A DNA stretch of 20,000 bases, taken from the IMG/VR virus record IMGVR_UViG_3300031857_021139. One strand, 5' to 3'. This stretch comes from an uncultured virus (IMG/VR IMGVR_UViG_3300031857_021139). Lineage: Duplodnaviria > Heunggongvirae > Uroviricota > Caudoviricetes. Positions within the stretch are counted from its first letter, which is position 1. Every line of letters starts with the position of its first letter. Of this stretch, positions 1 to 12,715 are shown one piece after another. A program made the position numbers and the translations under genes. The notes under the pieces were generated by a model, which was not told the origin of the DNA, searched no databases, and saw nothing but the letters and a program-made list of their open reading frames with translations.

Positions 1-622
1 GTGTCCCTGGAGGTATGGTAAGCGCGAGTTCACGACCCTGTAGATCTGTGATTATAACCTCGCTGCCAACTATGAGTTGCCACACAGTGACCTGGCGATC
101 AGTGATGATGTCCTTGCCTTGTCTTTGCCATCGGGCATCGGGTTTGACTCGGTAAGTGATCACGAGATCTTGACCACCCGGGGCCAGACGCGGATAGCGT
201 ATGGTGTCACCATCATCAAGTCCGCGAGGCACGTCAATTTCAATGTTGGACACTGTGTCTCCTACCTGCAGGCTCACAGTGCGTGTGCCTCCTGACAACA
301 CATCAGCCAATGTGATCCAGAGATTCAATCTGGCATGACCGGGCTGGCGATTGCGCGGTGGATGCCCAAACATGCTGAAAATATCATCGAAGTTGAAGCC
401 GTTGGCCCCAAAGTTCACATGTACTGATTGGCGTGGGTTGTCATATTCTCTGCGCCGCTCAGGATCGCTGAGCACAGTATGTGCTTCGTTGATGTCTTGG
501 AACTGAGAAGCATCGCCGCCGCGGTCTGGATGGTGTTGCATGGCCAAGCGACGGAAGGCTCGTTTGATTTCGTCTTCCGATGCCGTGCGGGATACTCCCA
601 GTATCTTGTAATAATCTTTCAC
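1..622 (-). CDS. dnaJ: DnaJ/CbpA-like J-domain chaperone (class B, no Zn finger); 3' end truncated by the window edge
   Basis: Absent from the ORF track because it runs off the edge. Manual translation from GTG at 622: [37 protein letters not shown]...[11 protein letters not shown] (J domain with HPD), a G/F-rich linker ([16 protein letters not shown]), then DnaJ C-terminal-like sequence ([15 protein letters not shown]...IPPGT). Confidence 0.93.
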
Positions 623-1872: not shown

Positions 1873-2336
1873 CAGGCAATCAATCCTTGTTTGTAAACAG
1901 TCTTACCGTTTTCACGCATGGCTGTCATGGCCTGGCGCTTGAGATTAGCGGGATCATAACTCACATGCACCCATCCTGAATCAGGGATGCCTGGTGTGTA
2001 AAATTCCAGGATCAACTGGGTGAACTGGAAGTATTCGGCGATATACTTGGCCAAGTCGGCGTTGGGCACGCCGGGGATCTCAATGTCTGCTGCCTGTCCT
2101 TTGCAGTGATCACTGGTACGGCTGCCGCCCACAGCGGCATTGACATCTGGTGCGCGATATCCAGAATTGACCTTGATACCACGACCATAGGCCGTGCGCA
2201 GAGGTTGGAGTATTTGTTCGCATAATATGCGTAGATTATCAATCACATCTTCCGGCGGGGTGTTGTCAAGACCGTGACGCAGTGCTGTCTCTGACTTGAT
2301 CATTTCGTTGAGGCTGAAATTTTCGGTTAGTTGCAT
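1872..2336 (-). CDS. peptidase M15 family Zn-peptidase, probable endolysin
   Basis: Start reassigned to ATG 2336 (AAGGAG SD upstream). Motifs: MQLTENFSLNEM, SGYR...VGGSRTSDH, GQAADI, WVHVSY (His/Asp/His Zn ligands of M15). Confidence 0.9.
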   Translation of the reverse strand: MQLTENFSLNEMIKSETALRHGLDNTPPEDVIDNLRILCEQILQPLRTAYGRGIKVNSGYRAPDVNAAVGGSRTSDHCKGQAADIEIPGVPNADLAKYIAEYFQFTQLILEFYTPGIPDSGWVHVSYDPANLKRQAMTAMRENGKTVYKQGLIA

Positions 2337-2354
2337 ATAAAAGCTCCTTGTGCC

Positions 2355-2373
2355 GATATTTACCTTAAATATC
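2355..2373. promoter_or_regulatory. back-to-back TAAATA late-promoter-like motifs forming a perfect inverted repeat
   Basis: GATATTTA-CCT-TAAATATC. TAAATA on - (2357-2362) faces the lysis cassette; TAAATA on + (2366-2371) lies 5 nt before ATG 2377. Confidence 0.7.
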
Positions 2374-2376
2374 ACG

Positions 2377-3648
2377 ATGAATGTACTGATACTCACCCCA
2401 GACGCTGTAGGCAGCACCTTGTTACAGCGATTGATAACCATATACATGCAATTTTGTGAGTATGATCGGCCAGTGATCAATCTGCACGAACTGACCAACG
2501 GATTAGAAAAATATTTCAGTCCCGAGTTCAATCGTGAAATCGTCAGCAAAAAGAAAGTACCAAACTGGGGTTATCATCAAAGTCTACAACAAATCGTGGA
2601 AGTTTTGAGCAGTGTTGACCACTACAAAACTTCTCGCTTGGCACATTATCATCTGGTCAATCGCCAAGATCCTTTGCAGGATCAGGTTCCATTTTACAAT
2701 TACCTGAATGAAAACTTTTATATCATATCTTGCAGGCGTAAAAATGTGTTTGAACATGCGCTCAGCAGGACTCTAAGCAATGTAATCAAAAAACTCAATG
2801 TTTACTCTGGTGCAGAAAAGATTGATACTTTCTTGCCTTTATACAGAGATAAAATAGAAATAGATCAAATGAGTTTGATCAAATATCTCGATGCCTACAA
2901 ACACTATGCTGACTGGGTAGATAATTTTTTCCATGTATCTTCTTACTTTACCTACGAAGATCACTTGCCCGAGATAGAAAAGTTCATACTGTCTTTGCCG
3001 TTTTTTTCGGGGCAGACAGAAAAACTTTCTTGGGATGCAAAGTTTGGAATCAGTGTCAACGATTGGAATCGCTGTCAGCATGCTGTCAGCGATATTGGTT
3101 CATACATGATACACGGCCAGGGCAAGAACTCAGCATTGGCCTATGAGTATGACAATGGACCCAAGATTGACAACACCGTGGTAACATTTTATCAACGGCA
3201 TGCACATGAGTCTTGGCCCGCTATACATAACACCACAGATTTTGCCAATCTTCCCGACTGGTACAAAAAATCAACTTATCAGATGATCGCCAAGGAAAAA
3301 ATCACAAATCAATTGGTCACTGACAGAAATTTTGACAGCTACTTCGGCAATCTTCGCGCAGGGTTTGATAATGTACAACAAACTATCAAAAAGATGCAAG
3401 AGTTGGATATCATCGTATCTCCTCCTCCAATCAAGAAACAAACGTTGGAGGAGAAAAAACACATGATAAAAAATTTCAATCAATGTGTTGCCACGTTCAA
3501 TGACTGGGTCAAAACCAACGCAAGATTTGGCCCAGAAATCAACGATGATTCAATACAAAAACAAGTGCAATTTGAACAGCAATATTGGAAACTACCAGTT
3601 ACCCCTCAAGTTTCTGCACCACATGATTTGCCAGCCATTGAGCAGTAA
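2377..3648 (+). CDS. sulfotransferase-fold (Stf0-like) protein
   Basis: N-terminal VLILTPDAVGSTLL resembles the 5'-PSB loop (RSGSTLL in Stf0); YIISCRRKNVFEHALS resembles the 3'-PB motif; FTYEDHL resembles the YEDL motif. Visibly AT-richer than the flanks. Confidence 0.6.
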   Translation: MNVLILTPDAVGSTLLQRLITIYMQFCEYDRPVINLHELTNGLEKYFSPEFNREIVSKKKVPNWGYHQSLQQIVEVLSSVDHYKTSRLAHYHLVNRQDPLQDQVPFYNYLNENFYIISCRRKNVFEHALSRTLSNVIKKLNVYSGAEKIDTFLPLYRDKIEIDQMSLIKYLDAYKHYADWVDNFFHVSSYFTYEDHLPEIEKFILSLPFFSGQTEKLSWDAKFGISVNDWNRCQHAVSDIGSYMIHGQGKNSALAYEYDNGPKIDNTVVTFYQRHAHESWPAIHNTTDFANLPDWYKKSTYQMIAKEKITNQLVTDRNFDSYFGNLRAGFDNVQQTIKKMQELDIIVSPPPIKKQTLEEKKHMIKNFNQCVATFNDWVKTNARFGPEINDDSIQKQVQFEQQYWKLPVTPQVSAPHDLPAIEQ

Positions 3649-4453
3649 GCAAATCAAAATGATGACCATCTCTGGCGATATCTAATCTTGGAACTTGTAC
3701 ACAGCATGCTTGATCCTCAAAGCACACGCTGAGTAAATCAAAGTAATAAAACTTTTGCTTGATCTCCTCAGAGAGATATTGGGGTAATGCGGCCAATTCT
3801 TGGATTGATTTTGGAGGTCGACTGGGCCAATCTGGTCCTTTGATATCCAGCCAACTTTGGTCAATGTTGGGCTTGAAATCAGGAATCACGTAGTGCAAGA
3901 CCTGCGTAGATACGCCACGTACCTTGGACACACAGGATTGGAAGTGCTGATAATCCTCAGCATCGCTGGCCTGGGATCTATCAATGCGCCTGAGTTCATC
4001 ATCTCGGATGTGATCCATGGTTTCACGGCGATGTATGTAGCTCCACAGGATAATCATGACACTGGGTTGAATTTCGTCAATGATCTGTTGGGCACGCCTG
4101 CAGATCCAGTCATTGCTGGCGCCATCCATGCTGACGTTGATGGTTCGTTGCCCTATAGTCTGTTGCAGTAGATAAGGCCATGTGTGTGATCTAGGACTGC
4201 CCAGGCCCACTGTAAAACTATCTCCAATGCACCAAATTGCGGTCTGCAAACATGTTCGGTCTGTGGGCCAAGGTAGGTCGCGAAATCCCCGATCGTTGTA
4301 GTGATATTCTACGGCGTGAGGATATCTATCAAACCAGGCACGGTCAACACAGTGGTCGGGCGAATCTAACCCGCTGTGGCGCCAGCATTGATTGACCCGG
4401 CTGAGGATTCTTAAATCTGGGAGAACTTGCCCGGGCGGGCAGCCGTGGATCAC
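3599..4453 (-). CDS. SGNH/GDSL hydrolase-superfamily protein
   Basis: YNDRGFRD...IWCIGDSFTVG (block I Ser), NVSMDGASN (block II Gly), RDGHH (DxxH block V); GTG start overlaps the upstream stop (GTGA). Confidence 0.75.
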   Translation of the reverse strand: MIHGCPPGQVLPDLRILSRVNQCWRHSGLDSPDHCVDRAWFDRYPHAVEYHYNDRGFRDLPWPTDRTCLQTAIWCIGDSFTVGLGSPRSHTWPYLLQQTIGQRTINVSMDGASNDWICRRAQQIIDEIQPSVMIILWSYIHRRETMDHIRDDELRRIDRSQASDAEDYQHFQSCVSKVRGVSTQVLHYVIPDFKPNIDQSWLDIKGPDWPSRPPKSIQELAALPQYLSEEIKQKFYYFDLLSVCFEDQACCVQVPRLDIARDGHHFDLLTAQWLANHVVQKLEG

Positions 4454-5283
4454 TCCAGACCCATCTCTCGACGTATCTTGGTGGCCGAGATCTCTGTGAT
4501 GGACTCGTCAAAGGTCTCTTCACCTGAGGTATACCCCACTCCGCGGCCCCAGCCTATGTGTACAATGTTGGGTACCACTTGGATCTCGTACTGCCCTTGA
4601 TAGATTGGATCAAGGTCTCTGCGGATGTAATTTTTTACTTGTTCTATAGCAAAAGGATTTGATCCTTGCCAACCCTGTACATCCCGCACCTGTATGACTA
4701 CCTGTCCTGTGCGGGCTATGAGTCTTTCAAACAAGGCTCTATGGCCGGCATGCCAAGGCTGCCATCGTCCCAACATCTGCACAGTTTCCTTGCGCCAGTC
4801 AAACACGGGTCTCCGTCGATCTTCCAAGATGTGCTGACCAATGAATTCGGCCCATTTCTCCGCGTTCTGTTCTGTCACCCGGAAATCGTAAACGTCCGGT
4901 GGTGTAAACATGCGGTTGGTATCTTCATAGCGACCTGCGTCAATGGTATCCATCCATATGGTCCAGTCGGCTTTGTAATTGTAGCGCATCTCGGGCAAAG
5001 GCGCCACGAAATCTACAATCACAAAATCCGCTTGCGACTTGTCTGCGAGTTCTCGCATCCTATGGCTTTGCCGGATACGACCTTCCTGGCTGAAATCCCA
5101 ATCGTTGAACTTCTTTCTAACATCATCGGCATTGTACCATTGCACAGTGGCATAACTCTGGTGGGCCATCTCTTTTTCATCATGGAACATGCCACTGTTT
5201 GTTTCGAGATATTGTTTCAATGCAGTGGCCATGAAAGTCTTGCCTGCGCCTGGCAAACCCATGATCAATATTCTTTTAGACAT
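4450..5283 (-). CDS. fusion: adenylyl-sulfate (APS) kinase-like P-loop domain + cytidyltransferase-like (HIGH) nucleotidyltransferase
   Basis: Start ATG 5283 with AGGAG SD. N-domain: GLPGAGKT, NADDVRKKFNDWDFSQEGRIRQ, VIVDFVAP (CysC-like). C-domain: GRWQPWHAGH, NPF, ISATKIR (NadM/TagD-like HIGH and SxT motifs). Confidence 0.85.
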   Translation of the reverse strand: MSKRILIMGLPGAGKTFMATALKQYLETNSGMFHDEKEMAHQSYATVQWYNADDVRKKFNDWDFSQEGRIRQSHRMRELADKSQADFVIVDFVAPLPEMRYNYKADWTIWMDTIDAGRYEDTNRMFTPPDVYDFRVTEQNAEKWAEFIGQHILEDRRRPVFDWRKETVQMLGRWQPWHAGHRALFERLIARTGQVVIQVRDVQGWQGSNPFAIEQVKNYIRRDLDPIYQGQYEIQVVPNIVHIGWGRGVGYTSGEETFDESITEISATKIRREMGLE

Positions 5284-5284
5284 T

Positions 5285-5962
5285 TTATACTCCTGTGAGG
5301 TTGTGAAAAAAATCGCTTTGATTAGCGATGATGTGTTTGGCTGCGGCTTCATGTGCCTGTTCCAAAGGATGCTCGGTATCGCTGATTGCGTAATCATGAT
5401 CTCTGCTCCATTCTACAAAGTTGCGACCTTGGAAGTTGCGTAGATAATGCTTGGCATGTTGTTGTAACAATGAGATGGCCGGACTACAATGATACTGCGT
5501 ATCAAATATGAGATGATCCATGTAAGTCATCATGTATGGTATGTTGCGCTGTACCAAAGTATCTATGCAGGTCTTGATGACGATCAGGGCATTGAGTTTG
5601 TCACGGTAATCACCCTGCAGATGAGAAAAATAAAACTTGTTTTCTTCTGACTTTTCACCGGGCCGCAGAGTGGACCAATCTCTATCCCAGGGAGTCTGAT
5701 TCATGCCGTAGTCAAATCTATCAATGTAGGTCCAGTTGATCACATAGATATCATCGCCGGGGCTAGCCGCATGGCTCAACACACGATCCGCTATGGATAG
5801 ATTGCCGGCGCCGGGCCTGGCATAACAAATATAGTCTTGCTCGAAATATCGGGCCAAATGGGCCGGCCATGTCAATTGGCTGGCTGAGGCGGAGGCGTGT
5901 CCTCGGCCGTCATCGGCTAAATCCGTGCCGAAAACGAAACTACAACCAAAACTTTTGAGCAT
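5285..5962 (-). CDS. SGNH-like hydrolase/acyltransferase-fold protein
   Basis: SFGCSFVFG (block I), TWPAHLA, ARPGAGN (block II), VINWTYIDR, C-terminal TEHPLEQAH. Confidence 0.65.
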   Translation of the reverse strand: MLKSFGCSFVFGTDLADDGRGHASASASQLTWPAHLARYFEQDYICYARPGAGNLSIADRVLSHAASPGDDIYVINWTYIDRFDYGMNQTPWDRDWSTLRPGEKSEENKFYFSHLQGDYRDKLNALIVIKTCIDTLVQRNIPYMMTYMDHLIFDTQYHCSPAISLLQQHAKHYLRNFQGRNFVEWSRDHDYAISDTEHPLEQAHEAAAKHIIANQSDFFHNLTGV

Positions 5963-5987
5963 GTGATTTTATAAAGTAGGGGATACT

Positions 5988-6548
5988 TTATATACCGGCG
6001 GCGGCTTGTAATTGGCAAATATCTTGCTCGCGATCGTAGATCTGGCGAGGTTCCAGGCCTGCACTTTCGCGAACCTGATTTAGAGCTTTTTCTTTCTTCT
6101 CACGATAGTCTTTGGGGCTGAGAGGTACCATGCGGTCAAAGGTTTCTTGGCTCCAAGGCATGGTCTGATCATCATAGTGCATGGTCCAATCCTTGGCGTC
6201 AAATTCGGTCAACGTGCTGAGATCTTCCAAGGCTGTGTTGATCTTTTCTCCGGCTGTGCTTCTACGGCGCATCTCTAGATATACCAGATAGCGGCTGGGT
6301 CTGATTTCGCCCGGACTCTTTGCCGCATCCAAGACCCAATCATAGCCCTTTTCAAACCAGTTCACGAGATCTTTGGCAGCTGCATCACTGCGCACGAAGA
6401 ATGAAATCACTATGATGTCATCGTCATCGCCCATCTTGCTGGCGAATTCGTCAACGTGTATGGTAGGCTTGATCATGCCGACCATGTCTTTGTATTCAAG
6501 GTTCTCACACAGCGGGAGCTGCGACGGATTGTGATATCTGCTGTTCAT
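5988..6548 (-). CDS. hypothetical phage protein
   Basis: Long clean acidic ORF (HVDEFASKMGDDDDIIVISFFV...WVLDA). Start probably MNSRY at 6548; the track start at 6611 overlaps the upstream gene more heavily. Confidence 0.75.
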   Translation of the reverse strand: MNSRYHNPSQLPLCENLEYKDMVGMIKPTIHVDEFASKMGDDDDIIVISFFVRSDAAAKDLVNWFEKGYDWVLDAAKSPGEIRPSRYLVYLEMRRRSTAGEKINTALEDLSTLTEFDAKDWTMHYDDQTMPWSQETFDRMVPLSPKDYREKKEKALNQVRESAGLEPRQIYDREQDICQLQAAAGI

Positions 6549-7080
6549 CTTGTCGGAATTCTTGTTGGTCAAGGTCTTCTTCATAGGAAGCATCAAGTTC
6601 TTCGAGATCAATGTCTTGATCCTCTAACTCCATGCTGCCAGTGCGTATGTCGGAAATCAGGCTCTTGGGCATGACTATTTCTACCAACCATACCATTTTT
6701 TCTACCAAGCGAGCCTTGTGCGTGCCTGGCACATAATCATCAGGATTCTCAATCTTGATCGGAATCTTGATGCGTTTCTTTTTGAACTTGATGTTGCAGT
6801 CAAAAGGTAGCAATCGCCGGGCACCGCGTGGATCGGGCATGAGCCGTTCGGGCCACATGAAGATGCAACCCACGGTGTATTTGCCCACATCAGGTCCCTG
6901 TACCAGTTCCCCATAAATCCAGTTTTTAAAAGCGTAGAGATCCAGTTCGTCCAACACCCGCTCAAAATCCAGCAGGGTCAGTAGACTGCCTTCGGAAAGA
7001 TACAGATTTTTGATGTTTTCGGCCACCAACCAGTAGTCTTCATGGTTTTCAAAAACATCTTTGTCAAGTTTGCTGTGCAT
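6505..7080 (-). CDS. hypothetical phage protein with acidic C-terminus
   Basis: LLDFERVLDELDLYAFKNW...FMWPERLMPDPRG; ATG 7080 lies 4 nt after a TAAATA motif. Confidence 0.8.
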   Translation of the reverse strand: MHSKLDKDVFENHEDYWLVAENIKNLYLSEGSLLTLLDFERVLDELDLYAFKNWIYGELVQGPDVGKYTVGCIFMWPERLMPDPRGARRLLPFDCNIKFKKKRIKIPIKIENPDDYVPGTHKARLVEKMVWLVEIVMPKSLISDIRTGSMELEDQDIDLEELDASYEEDLDQQEFRQDEQQISQSVAAPAV

Positions 7081-7084
7081 ATGA

Positions 7085-7090
7085 TATTTA
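7085..7090 (-). promoter_or_regulatory. TAAATA late-promoter-like motif
   Basis: Minus strand aaTAAATAtcatATG, directly before the 7080 start. Confidence 0.6.
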
Positions 7091-7197
7091 TTGGCGCGAA
7101 CCAAATACGATTTAGACTGTAGAGGGTCACTGGAGCCTAATACTTATGTCTCTAAATCCACCAATACCTACCCATAGATCATTGTGCCGCAGCCACC

Positions 7198-7203
7198 TAA
7201 ATA
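7198..7203 (+). promoter_or_regulatory. TAAATA late-promoter-like motif upstream of phoH
   Basis: ccTAAATActg, 40 nt before the TTG start, with an AAGGAG SD in between. Confidence 0.55.
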
Positions 7204-7243
7204 CTGTTGGGTAGCGAAAATTATGTTCAAAGGAGAACCGGAT

Positions 7244-7990
7244 TTGAGCAGAGCACGAGGAGCCAAGGCACAACGCCGCATGGCGCAACAGCAGTCCCAA
7301 GCAGTAGAAAACACCATCAACTTTAGACCAGCAGTAAAAACCCAACAACGACCCATAGAACTGATTCCAAAGACCCGAGGCCAAGAACGCTTGGTACTGA
7401 GTCTGCTGGAGGAAAGCGTGGCCATAACCGTGACTGTGGGTCCAGCTGGTACCGGCAAGACTTATTTGGCCATGCAAGCAGCTATACGTGCGTTGCGCAG
7501 TGGCGATGTAGATAAGATCGTGCTCACACGCCCGGCTGTGGGTGTGGAAGATGAACAGCATGGATTCCTGCCCGGTGACCTCATGGCCAAGATGGAACCT
7601 TGGACACGGCCGCTTTTAGACGTGTTGAAAGAATACTATCATCCTCGAGAGATCGCTAAAATGCTGGAAGATCAGATCATTGAAATCTCTCCCTTGGCAT
7701 ACATGCGAGGGCGAACTTTTAAAAATGCTTGGATCGTGGCCGATGAAATGCAGAATGCTACTCCGGGACAGATGAAAATGTTGCTGAGTCGCATAGGACA
7801 TGGATCTAAGATCACTGTCACGGGTGACGTGGATCAAGCAGATCGCAGAACCGATGAAAATGGCCTCATGGACCTGGCTGCGAGATTAGATCAGCGCCAG
7901 GTGCCGGGCATAGATGTTGTCAAAATGACCGGTCGTGATATCCAGCGTCACCCAATGATCACTGAGATACTGGCGCTGTATCAGCAGTAG
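7244..7990 (+). CDS. phoH: PhoH-family ATPase
   Basis: GPAGTGKTYLA, LTRPAV, GFLPGDL, PLAYMRGRTF, DEMQN, GDVDQAD are PhoH signatures. Probable TTG start at 7244 behind AAGGAG. Confidence 0.95.
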   Translation: MSRARGAKAQRRMAQQQSQAVENTINFRPAVKTQQRPIELIPKTRGQERLVLSLLEESVAITVTVGPAGTGKTYLAMQAAIRALRSGDVDKIVLTRPAVGVEDEQHGFLPGDLMAKMEPWTRPLLDVLKEYYHPREIAKMLEDQIIEISPLAYMRGRTFKNAWIVADEMQNATPGQMKMLLSRIGHGSKITVTGDVDQADRRTDENGLMDLAARLDQRQVPGIDVVKMTGRDIQRHPMITEILALYQQ

Positions 7991-11604: not shown

Positions 11605-11610
11605 TATTTA
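11605..11610 (-). promoter_or_regulatory. TAAATA motif overlapping the stop codon of the dnaE fragment
   Basis: Minus strand cgtTAAATAtcaggacaacaaggaacacttATG. Confidence 0.55.
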
Positions 11611-12129
11611 ACGCAAGAATTCGCGTGGGTCTAAATCATAGTGCATAGAATCTATGCGATGCACACCTAGGAGATACAATACATAACTGGCCACAGATGA
11701 TCCGCGGCCCACTCCCCAGATGCAGTGATTGTCTCGCAGTACATCCACGAAATATTTGAGATATCGCAGAAGATCAAACAGATCGTGTTGCTGATACAGC
11801 AACAGTTCTTCACCAACCCTTTGCAGTTGCTCTTGTGTAGAACACAATGACAGCACATGTGCGGCGATATCCAGATCTTTGTACTGATCGGGCATGAACC
11901 ACTGTGATTGTCGGATCTTGTCAAATTCATCTACGCTGAGATCTTCGTTGGCTGGCTTGGCCCAGGTCCGCAGTTGTCCTGGATCTTGTATGTTACCGAT
12001 CATGCCGGCTACATCCATGCTGGGCTCAACACAAACGCCTGGCATGGCAGTGATGTCTCGCCCCTGCATGATAAGATCGCAGAGATCCAAGTCTTGGAAT
12101 ACTATCTCTCCAAATTTATTGGTCTTCAT
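11608..12129 (-). CDS. dnaE: DNA polymerase III alpha (DnaE, family C) stand-alone fragment
   Basis: RVGEELLLY...LKYFVDVLR...WGVGRGSSVASYVLYLLGVHRIDSMHYDLDPREFLR aligns by eye with DnaE GPGRGSxAGSLVAYxLxITxxDPxxxxLLFERFL. Only 173 aa from ATG 12129. Confidence 0.85.
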   Translation of the reverse strand: MKTNKFGEIVFQDLDLCDLIMQGRDITAMPGVCVEPSMDVAGMIGNIQDPGQLRTWAKPANEDLSVDEFDKIRQSQWFMPDQYKDLDIAAHVLSLCSTQEQLQRVGEELLLYQQHDLFDLLRYLKYFVDVLRDNHCIWGVGRGSSVASYVLYLLGVHRIDSMHYDLDPREFLR

Positions 12130-12715
12130 CGCGTGCAAAATTAGCAAACACCACTGATTCTTTTCCGTCGTCTTTTTCTTGATCCCAATCCAGTCCAAAA
12201 TCTTTCCACTCTGGCACCCGGTCCAGGCTGACTATTTTACCATCACCTCGAGGACGGCCTGCGTGCCACATGGGTTTGGGATCCAACCACCAACCGTTTT
12301 GGGCCAGGCCTGGCCCCACATTTTCTCCATGGCTGTGTAGGTAACTCATGGAATCACCCTGGGTGCTCCAGATTTCTACGTCAGTCACTACCATGCGATT
12401 TTCCATGATGGCATTGAGTTTCAAGTATAGCATGATGCCCACGATTTGGTCAACTGGTTCGTCCGGCAGTACCAAGAGTCGGGCACCGGTATCCAGATAC
12501 TGCTGTAACTTGGAGCTGTCATTTTCGATCAAAATCGAATCGTCCATGACGCAGAAGATCCAGTACTTCATTCGTTCATAGGCTATGTTTTGTTCTGCGT
12601 TGTCACCGCTGACAGTGACCAGGTTGAGTTCAACATTGAAATGGTTGACCATGAAACGGTCTTCGAACACTGTGCCTGTGTAAAAACCAAATGATTTTTT
12701 CAATCGTGCGTTCAT
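12116..12715 (-). CDS. hypothetical protein, possible degenerate QueD/PTPS T-fold
   Basis: Clean 199 aa ORF, ATGA-coupled to the upstream gene; segment order resembles QueD but the His ligands are missing (see findings). Confidence 0.7.
   Translation of the reverse strand: MNARLKKSFGFYTGTVFEDRFMVNHFNVELNLVTVSGDNAEQNIAYERMKYWIFCVMDDSILIENDSSKLQQYLDTGARLLVLPDEPVDQIVGIMLYLKLNAIMENRMVVTDVEIWSTQGDSMSYLHSHGENVGPGLAQNGWWLDPKPMWHAGRPRGDGKIVSLDRVPEWKDFGLDWDQEKDDGKESVVFANFARDEDQ

Follow-up and report, generated by a model that had tools for sequence, protein, structure and literature searches.

The window analysed here, a 20,000-nucleotide stretch of DNA from an uncultured virus of the Caudoviricetes (IMG/VR record IMGVR_UViG_3300031857_021139), carries a gene for a 277-amino-acid protein that joins a kinase domain to a small nucleotidyltransferase (NT) domain. 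This fusion protein is probably a compact bifunctional synthase of 3′-phosphoadenosine 5′-phosphosulfate (PAPS), in which the NT domain would act as a non-orthologous, miniature ATP sulfurylase (Sat) that makes adenosine 5′-phosphosulfate (APS) for the kinase. A previous reading made from the letters alone (the sequence-only reading) had proposed that the product is either PAPS or some other 3′-phosphorylated nucleoside monophosphate (NMP)-X donor. Comparative genomics supports the PAPS branch because the kinase is linked to sulfotransferases and the NT domain to aprBA in SAR11 bacteria that have no Sat, and the other branch is less likely. The gene and its parts are as follows.

4450..5283, minus strand: the fusion gene (protein P0001, 277 amino acids), stop codon included (open reading frame listing, translation and PHROG 10255).
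4813..5283, minus strand: N-terminal APS-kinase-like P-loop domain without a lid, residues 1–157 (Pfam, PDB profile and fold).
5236..5259, minus strand: Walker A loop GLPGAGKT, residues 9–16 (translation; G9, G14 and K15 invariant in 49 homologues).
4453..4797, minus strand: C-terminal minimal HxGH nucleotidyltransferase domain, residues 163–277 (PDB profile and VIA fold search).
4741..4770, minus strand: GRWQPWHAGH, residues 172–181, the HxGH nucleotide-binding signature (translation and conservation).
4531..4548, minus strand: family-specific loop GRGVGY, residues 246–251, family consensus GRDVGY (conservation).
4471..4491, minus strand: ISATKIR, residues 265–271, the second nucleotidyltransferase signature (translation and conservation).

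The open reading frame that had been reported at these coordinates is a real minus-strand gene, with an ATG at 5283, its last codon ending at 4453, a TGA at 4450–4452 and a GGAG sequence 8 nucleotides 5′ of the ATG; the plus-strand reading of the same interval is riddled with stops. The protein matches PHROG 10255 (“kinase”), whose members include the Xylella phages Sano and Salvo, at E = 4.5e-43, with residues 3–275 on profile positions 2–229 of 230, and its AlphaFold model has a mean predicted local distance difference test (pLDDT) score of 91.3. Because homologues are abundant in metagenomes, IMG/VR, cultured phages and cellular genomes, the fusion is a real gene architecture and no assembly accident. 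Among 8000 metagenomic candidates scored, 7967 proteins fall at E ≤ 1e-3 (1885 cluster representatives at the same threshold), and IMG/VR holds 589 loci on contigs of up to 357 kb. In twelve cultured-phage records the match spans at least 80% of the fusion protein, at 36–40% identity; the carriers are Xylella phages Sano, Salvo and Bacata, their Stenotrophomonas and Xanthomonas relatives, and DLP_6. Cellular genomes contribute 307 relatives, the best 80 of which come from Pelagibacteraceae (35 loci), SAR86, Bradyrhizobium, Inquilinus, Rhodospirillales and others. JGI names some relatives adenylylsulfate kinase, two nicotinamide riboside kinase and one phosphopantetheine adenylyltransferase (PPAT).

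Residues 1–157 can be assigned, by sequence and predicted structure, to the APS kinase family, minus its lid. Both the CysC-like P-loop domain and the HIGH-family domain described in the sequence-only reading are statistically supported. The family profile, built from an alignment of 49 homologues that also underlies the conservation figures given here, matches PDB APS kinases at E values from 7.6e-16 (2yvu) to 1e-9 and the archaeal nicotinamide mononucleotide (NMN) adenylyltransferase (NMNAT) 1f9a at 1.1e-11, and the Pfam APS_kinase model (PF01583) scores 26.0 bits over residues 4–104 against a cut-off of 21.1. NCBIfam TIGR00455 gives the fusion protein 22 bits against a cut-off of 138.7, so it is no equivalog. 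The best Foldseek matches for the model are APS kinases, and the VIA search places CysC 4rfv first (Z 17.3, root mean square deviation 1.8, 129 residues aligned), followed by 2yvu (17.0) and 2gks (16.2), with gluconate kinase as the next other family (Z 13.8). In five solved APS kinases, the D-G-D-x-x-R...F-S...R block aligns with NADDVRKKFNDWDFSQEGRIRQ of the phage protein, and we take this block, from the residue roles in the solved enzymes, to be the site that holds APS; D53, R56, F64, R69, Q72 and the stretch G9–T16 are conserved in the kinase homologues.

In canonical APS kinases, a mobile lid with the motif RDxKGLY...KAR links strand 4 to the GFTGID segment. The lid region of the phage protein reads WMDTIDAGRYEDT, with just IDAGR separating WMDT from YEDT, and HMMER alignments to PDB APS kinases stop near profile position 97. 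The loss is a family trait that extends to the kinase-only relatives found beside sulfotransferases. The translation confirms that the kinase has no RDPKGLY lid and the transferase no QxRN motif, as had been noticed from the letters.

The NT domain is derived from NMNAT, yet it is neither a plain NMNAT nor a member of a curated Sat family. Its profile finds exclusively NMNATs in the PDB (NadM 2qjt, E = 7e-9; 1f9a, E = 5e-7) and no Sat, PPAT or TagD up to an E value of 10, and the canonical Sat family PF01747 is absent from the Pfam matches of the fusion protein up to an E value of 1. Sat enzymes carry the motifs QxRNPxHxxH and GRDHAG. The fusion protein does not have QxRN; its NT domain carries the NMNAT form GRWQPWHAGH instead, in which G172, R173, Q175, P176, H178, G180 and H181 are at least 90% conserved. 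An NPF motif is also present and conserved, and ISATKIR (R271 invariant, I265 and S266 at least 90% conserved) aligns with YSGTEIR of 1f9a. The GRGVGY loop, of which G246, R247 and G250 are invariant, is in our view reminiscent of the Sat GRDHAG loop. R200 and R247 are invariant arginines additional to those of NadM and archaeal NMNAT.

By the sequence-only reading's own standard, its proposal would fall if this domain were a plain NMN adenylyltransferase. It is not one, because about 24 residues of the archaeal enzyme are missing and it fails the equivalog models. The domain comprises about 115 residues against 168 for NMNAT, and is therefore about 50 shorter; the HMMER alignment to 1f9a passes over the roughly 24 archaeal residues between the second helix and the next strand. 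The equivalog scores are 23.4 bits for TIGR01527 (cut-off 181.2) and 22.9 for NF002243 (cut-off 127). In NMNATs, the strand and loop that follow the second helix have a role in holding nicotinamide; by DSSP, the NT domain of the model has three strands.

Fold ranking of the NT domain comes from the whole-model VIA search, where three matches are tied, namely PPAT 4nah (Z 10.2), 1f9a (10.0) and 2qjt (10.0). The nominal first place of PPAT invites the idea that the protein resembles CoA synthase, with a PPAT joined to a dephospho-CoA 3′-OH kinase that would supply acyl-CoA-using SGNH enzymes; one relative bears the JGI name PPAT, and the SGNH family encoded next to the fusion gene is distantly like the acyl-CoA thioesterase TesA (E = 0.02). 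We consider this idea extremely improbable, since no PPAT sequence match appeared up to an E value of 10, dephospho-CoA kinases reach Z scores of just 10.2–10.7 against 17.3 for APS kinase, and the context evidence all concerns sulfur.

That evidence begins with viral gene neighbourhoods, for which we surveyed the neighbours of the homologue in 80 related viral loci and searched 50 viral records that each contain a homologue. Because the phage enzymes largely escape the sulfotransferase models of Pfam (PF13469 matched in one of five records and PF09037 in one of 50, both below cut-off), we used a purpose-built profile, A4, made from the neighbour group that starts PRSGST; against the PDB it matches human TPST1 at E = 7e-15. 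Twelve of the 50 records contain an A4 match, which in every case lies upstream of the fusion gene, 0.35–5.9 kb away, and shares its strand; contigs as long as 136 and 152 kb are no exception. In the reverse test, 41 of 80 viral loci picked solely by A4 have the kinase family within 10 kb, as do 30 of the 56 A4 loci with at least 7 kb of downstream sequence. Thirty-nine of these 41 kinases are on the same strand as the sulfotransferase gene and 10 are directly adjacent to it. This linkage (12/12 and 41/80 loci) supports the proposal that the kinase half phosphorylates APS to yield PAPS. No canonical Sat (PF01747) was found by six-frame search in the 50 homologue-bearing records, nor in 50 further viral records.

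The 41 A4-linked kinases comprise 14 kinase–transferase fusions and 27 forms without an NT domain. Gaps of 18–51 bp separate kinase-only forms from true sulfotransferases, and a complete 36.6-kb phage provides one of these cases. A kinase that is active without an NT partner would therefore need a substrate supplied by the host, which fits APS.

Two side observations concern these loci. A family of 309–352 amino acids neighbours the phage sulfotransferases (L128:10753-11721, L141:1500-2492, L155:9457-10512 and L137:14275-15237); an N-terminal part of about 185 residues (MVKLIHADGFF...FRPWVFHS) is followed by a kinase-like domain with a decayed P-loop (GLPGSS, GPPGSE or GLPESS), and its members are likely pseudokinases. 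A 69-residue DUF2061 membrane protein is encoded directly after the fusion gene in 17 of the 80 viral loci (for example, L029:4333-4542); in P0219, DUF2061 is fused in front of the NT domain, and P0166 is another protein listed for the same observation.

For bacterial loci, we scanned 92 of the 121 representative neighbour proteins, the 29 shortest being left out. The fused gene lies directly behind TPR-Sulfotransfer_3 genes (E = 1e-42) at seven loci in Bradyrhizobium and relatives, and directly behind genes for Sulfotransfer_3 (one locus), Sulfotransfer_2 (one locus, E = 7e-26) and arylsulfotransferase/ASST (two loci). At three SAR11 loci, which lie among organosulfur genes, it is 2–3 kb from genes for AprB (PF12139, E = 1.7e-32), an AprA-like flavoprotein and a CysQ-like phosphatase.

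Most SAR11 bacteria have no ATP sulfurylase despite possessing AprAB, according to a passage of PMC10356861. We examined a sample of 81 Pelagibacteraceae genomes, of which 37 encode the NT domain and 28 AprB; 27 encode the two together, one has AprB only, 10 have the NT domain only and 43 lack both (Fisher p = 3e-12, uncorrected for phylogeny). Canonical Sat occurs in four of the 81, and the NT domain is found in 25 of the 26 genomes that have AprB and no Sat. The NT domain takes the fused form in nine genomes, is encoded beside a separate kinase gene in many and stands alone in about ten. In eight genomes, the coordinates put an NT gene without a kinase roughly 1.1 kb upstream of aprB and in the same orientation, and in the three inspected the order is NT, a 263-residue hydrophobic protein, AprB and AprA, with short gaps. 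In other sulfite oxidisers, sat stands at the head of the aprBA row. The NT domain of the window shares 52% identity with the SAR11 NT-only gene product (E = 2e-38); the NT-only protein encoded at L258:1211-1588 has 126 residues. By context, then, the NT domain stands in the place of Sat, accompanied by aprBA or by an APS kinase while Sat itself is missing.

In the SAR11 loci inspected, the NT gene has a neighbour of the TENA/THI-4/PQQC family (haem-oxygenase-like), which lies upstream of the stand-alone NT gene in the aprBA row at L258:534-1199, L259:395-1060 and L260:6162-6833 and just downstream of the fused gene at L185:6828-7553. This neighbour may belong to the same pathway.

Fusion variants provide a further connection. 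In P0173, P0189 and P0160, the kinase is joined to a domain with sulfotransferase-like 5′-phosphosulfate-binding (5′-PSB) and 3′-phosphate-binding (3′-PB) motifs, and this partner is a probable sulfotransferase. Its assignment was approached in several ways. The partner domain of P0173 (N-terminal) and P0189 (C-terminal) has a best Pfam E value of 0.098, and its profile found nothing relevant in the PDB; hhalign against A4 returned a probability of 14.6%, then one of 26.8% with P = 7e-4 across 31 columns that cover the 3′-PB-like segment only; and a member-by-member scan of alignment A7 was dominated by P-loop families. The AlphaFold model of P0173 is poor (mean pLDDT 61.5, residues 90–197 below 50). 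A stand-alone relative of the partner domain matches Stf0 at E = 1.3e-3 and bears the JGI name NodH. P0160, with 489 residues, is a three-part protein in which a sulfotransferase-like domain and the kinase are followed by a decayed NT domain without HxGH, NPF, GRD or ISATKIR.

The decayed copy in P0160 and the 27 of 41 sulfotransferase-linked kinases without an NT domain are what would be expected if the kinase alone worked on sulfate, converting host APS to PAPS, and if the NT domain had a residual NMN or nicotinic acid mononucleotide adenylyltransferase activity, adenylylated something else or bound ATP or APS in a regulatory role. The significant sequence relatives of the NT domain, which are NMNATs only, and the NADAR gene in the context of Sano-like phages (see below) also fit such an arrangement. 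Nevertheless, we regard it as unlikely. The catalytic motifs of the NT domain are strongly conserved, some 24 archaeal NMNAT residues have no counterpart in it, and NT-only genes head aprBA rows in Sat-less SAR11 genomes. Related jumbo phages, moreover, already have other CTP_transf_like genes, and the nicotinamide-salvage family NAMPT/NAPRTase (PF04095) is found in none of five related jumbo-phage records. We continue to favour a PAPS synthase in which both halves act in sulfate activation.

The 20-kb window belongs to a large phage and encodes a DnaJ-like protein (2-622, minus strand, extending past the window edge), spanins, an M15 endolysin, PhoH, a clamp loader, a piece of Pol III alpha, virion structural proteins and tail-fibre proteins. 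The Pol III alpha-like piece at 11608-12198 (minus strand) has 196 residues, with PF07733 across 75 of them. The DNA has zero nucleotide matches among 50,697 phage records. The fusion gene sits in a tight minus-strand row of two virion-protein genes, a 225-residue SGNH-like gene, the fusion gene itself and a 284-residue SGNH/GDSL-like gene; a promoter and terminator scan of positions 2000–7400 gave nothing useful above shuffled controls. The neighbouring genes are as follows.

3599..4453, minus strand: downstream gene, 284 residues, SGNH/GDSL-hydrolase-like (Pfam and PDB profile).
5285..5962, minus strand: upstream gene, 225 residues, beginning MLKSFGCSF, a second and more distant SGNH-like protein (weak BLASTP).
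2377..3648, plus strand: divergent gene, 423 residues, start at 2377 (supported by homologues beginning MNVLILTPDAVGST).

The GTG start of the 284-residue gene overlaps the stop codon of the fusion gene (GTGA). Its product matches Pfam Lipase_GDSL_2 at E = 8.5e-5, under the cut-off, and its family profile matches the GDSL esterase 4rsh at E = 1.6e-4; S79, D262 and H265 are invariant in the family and constitute an intact Ser/Asp/His set. The stop codon of the 225-residue gene immediately precedes the fusion-gene ATG. The 225-residue protein has no Pfam match and resembles the 284-residue protein weakly by BLASTP (E = 0.007–0.008), and its homologues (cluster 21) are neighbours of the fusion gene in seven of the 80 related loci.

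Homologues of the 423-residue protein occur near the fusion gene in six of the 80 loci. The ESM Atlas leads from this protein to Stf0/Sulfotransfer_3 clusters (TM 0.38–0.42), and it contains a P-loop-like TPDAVGST and RR..N....S segments; there is no PDB match, and hhalign against both sulfotransferase profiles is not significant, so it is a doubtful and weak candidate for a sulfotransferase. The 423-residue and SGNH-like genes form a module of their own, and in a 340-kb phage they are adjacent (G002:C1:316185-318095) with the fusion gene 270 kb away.

The related jumbo phages (L084-L091, L096 and L097, in records G001-G005) encode several further cytidylyltransferase-like proteins, among them TagD/RfaE-like enzymes of 132 residues, proteins of 348–400 residues and transferases of 252–286 residues with a C-terminal extension of about 130 residues that is putatively cupin-like, and the neighbourhoods in these phages contain many glycosyltransferases, a carbamoyltransferase, UDP-galactopyranose mutase and radical SAM enzymes.

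Several observations weigh against a PAPS synthase. The kinase is without the lid that canonical APS kinases have, and the NT domain resembles only NMNATs in sequence, with no PF01747, QxRN or Sat match. Within the 20-kb window, the TPST-like and NodH-like profiles have zero matches and no verified sulfotransferase is encoded. With SGNH/GDSL-like genes on the flanks and the 423-residue gene as the weak candidate, the proposal in the sequence-only reading that the donor serves the neighbouring transferases finds no support within the window. Thirty-eight of the 50 related viral records, including two jumbo genomes that are 98–100% complete, have no TPST-like sulfotransferase, and the three sulfotransferase-like profiles find nothing in the three cultured-phage records searched, Bhz60, Bacata and DLP_6 (one Sanovirus, one Salvovirus and DLP_6). 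Note also that the co-occurrence counts are uncorrected for shared ancestry. In SAR11, the NT domain occurs in ten genomes that do not encode AprB.

Another such point comes from the Sano- and Salvo-like Casjensviridae, whose homologue overlaps a NADAR gene at the latter's end (L001:5565-6741 in Bhz60 and L002:5565-6741 in Bacata). In these phages, it also sits a few genes past a MazG-like pyrophosphatase and a “cysteine dioxygenase” gene, and this context offers hints of sulfur and of NAD/ADP-ribose together. The NADAR neighbour, the NadM-type motifs of the NT domain and the two relatives with the JGI name nicotinamide riboside kinase could point to NadR-like NAD salvage in permuted order, whereby a nicotinamide riboside kinase and an NMNAT would perhaps counter a NAD-depleting defence. 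We judge this very improbable. The kinase is APS-kinase-like (Z 17.3), whereas human NRK1 is matched by the PDB profile at just E = 5.5e-4, through the P-loop; TIGR01526 scores 14.2 bits against a cut-off of 341, again on the P-loop only; and the domain order is the reverse of that in NadR, where NMNAT comes first. The missing archaeal NMNAT residues, the lack of NAMPT in the five jumbo-phage records and the sulfotransferase and aprBA links speak against it as well.

Further unusual fusions bear on the identity of the nucleotide product. P0264 (389 residues) consists of the kinase and a sugar-phosphate-type NTP_transferase domain (PF00483) that replaces the HxGH domain, a layout that, by analogy, would be expected for a Cj1415/Cj1416-like pathway to another nucleoside diphosphate (NDP)-X donor. 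P0184 and P0210, from other phages, carry an esterase- or acyltransferase-like SGNH/GDSL domain where the NT domain would be, and the 284-residue protein of the window is homologous to their C-terminal halves (34–43% identity, E = 1e-51 to 1e-53). P0264 and this link between the SGNH gene and kinase fusions both count against PAPS.

These proteins, and the position of the window gene between two SGNH-like genes, suggest the alternative that the NT domain makes NMP-X from a nucleoside triphosphate and a phosphate ester or amidate, and that the kinase then adds a 3′-phosphate, feeding SGNH-like or other tailoring enzymes. Cj1415–Cj1418 make the 3′-phosphate of CDP-phosphoramidate (cytidine diphosphoramidate), according to a passage of PMC11800397, and the neighbourhoods of the relatives are rich in glycan-tailoring genes. 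However, the kinase-only forms 18–51 bp from true sulfotransferases need a host-supplied substrate, the bacterial aprBA and sulfotransferase links of the NT domain point to APS, and no glutamine-kinase-like or phosphoramidate genes turned up, although no specific search for them was made. This alternative therefore appears improbable.

Returning to the proposed PAPS synthase, the two folds, their conserved catalytic motifs and the genomic links were observed here, and we infer both substrates, the product and the sulfate acceptor. The NT domain would convert ATP and sulfate to APS and pyrophosphate, and the lid-less kinase would then add a phosphate to the 3′-OH of APS, yielding PAPS. Expression of the fusion gene would come late, among the virion, fibre and lysis genes of the phage, and the PAPS would feed sulfotransferases encoded by the phage, as in many relatives, or by the host, independently of sulfate activation by the host.

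In evolutionary terms, we lean narrowly toward the view that the NT domain arose from an NMNAT and represents a third type of ATP sulfurylase, as yet undescribed. Alone, it would take the place of the Sat that is missing from the SAR11 aprBA sulfite-oxidation pathway; fused to the lid-less kinase, it would form the smallest known PAPS synthase, with which large phages would sulfate glycans or proteins, whether of the virion or of the cell they infect. A literature search from which most subscription journals were excluded turned up no paper on the fusion, on a PAPS synthase from a phage or on an alternative sulfurylase in SAR11.

If this interpretation is correct, sulfate activation evolved a third time within the same superfamily, from an NAD enzyme and at about a quarter of the size of Sat. 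It would explain the end step of AMP-dependent sulfite oxidation in SAR11, which is among the most abundant bacteria in the sea, and would imply that phage or host surface molecules are sulfated. A single-chain PAPS synthase of 277 residues would also be useful for PAPS regeneration in enzymatic sulfation.

The proposal would likewise change how viral cysC is read, from sulfur assimilation to the supply of a sulfate donor for phage sulfotransferases. Virome surveys count viral cysC as assimilatory sulfate reduction, unvalidated, according to passages of PMC12713726 and PMC13172472. Relatives of the fusion protein carry PF01583, as these auxiliary “cysC” genes do, whereas the passages in question mention neither a fused mini-transferase nor a link to sulfotransferases or aprBA.

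The Campylobacter proteins Cj1415 and Cj1416, compared by pathway description only, differ from the phage protein in being encoded by two separate genes, and the context of the phage family points to APS. To our knowledge, Cj1416 is not a HIGH-family enzyme. The two systems share the use of a CysC-like kinase that 3′-phosphorylates the product of a nucleotidyltransferase, as described in part of PMC11800397.

With NadM and archaeal NMNAT (2qjt, 1f9a and 1ej2), the NT domain shares GRxQPxHxGH, NPF, ISxTxIR and the first beta-alpha-beta-alpha units (Z 10.0), although its genomic context is sulfur rather than NAD. The Sat–CysC fusions of Aquifex aeolicus (2gks) and Thiobacillus (3cr8) resemble the phage protein in their kinase halves (E = 1.7e-13 and 8.6e-12; Z 16.2 and 14.9) and, along with CysN/CysC, in joining sulfate activation to APS phosphorylation. 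In contrast, their domain order is the opposite, and their sulfurylase is canonical or GTPase-coupled; against the phage NT domain, HMMER aligns only HxxH and ISGTxIR of the 2gks sulfurylase, with insignificant scores.

The closest parallel in architecture is animal PAPS synthase (PAPSS1/2; 1x6v and 1xjq). The phage protein is much smaller (277 residues against about 620), its second domain has about 115 residues, NMNAT descent and no PF01747 or QxRN, and its kinase is without a lid. Nevertheless, the domain order recognized in the sequence-only reading is that of the animal enzyme, as borne out by the translation and by a structural alignment in which model residues 1–275 are co-linear with residues 51–596 of the 1x6v chain (Z 16.0). 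In both, an APS kinase comes first and an adenylyl-transferring domain of the HIGH superfamily second, and the same two-step chemistry is proposed for the phage protein.

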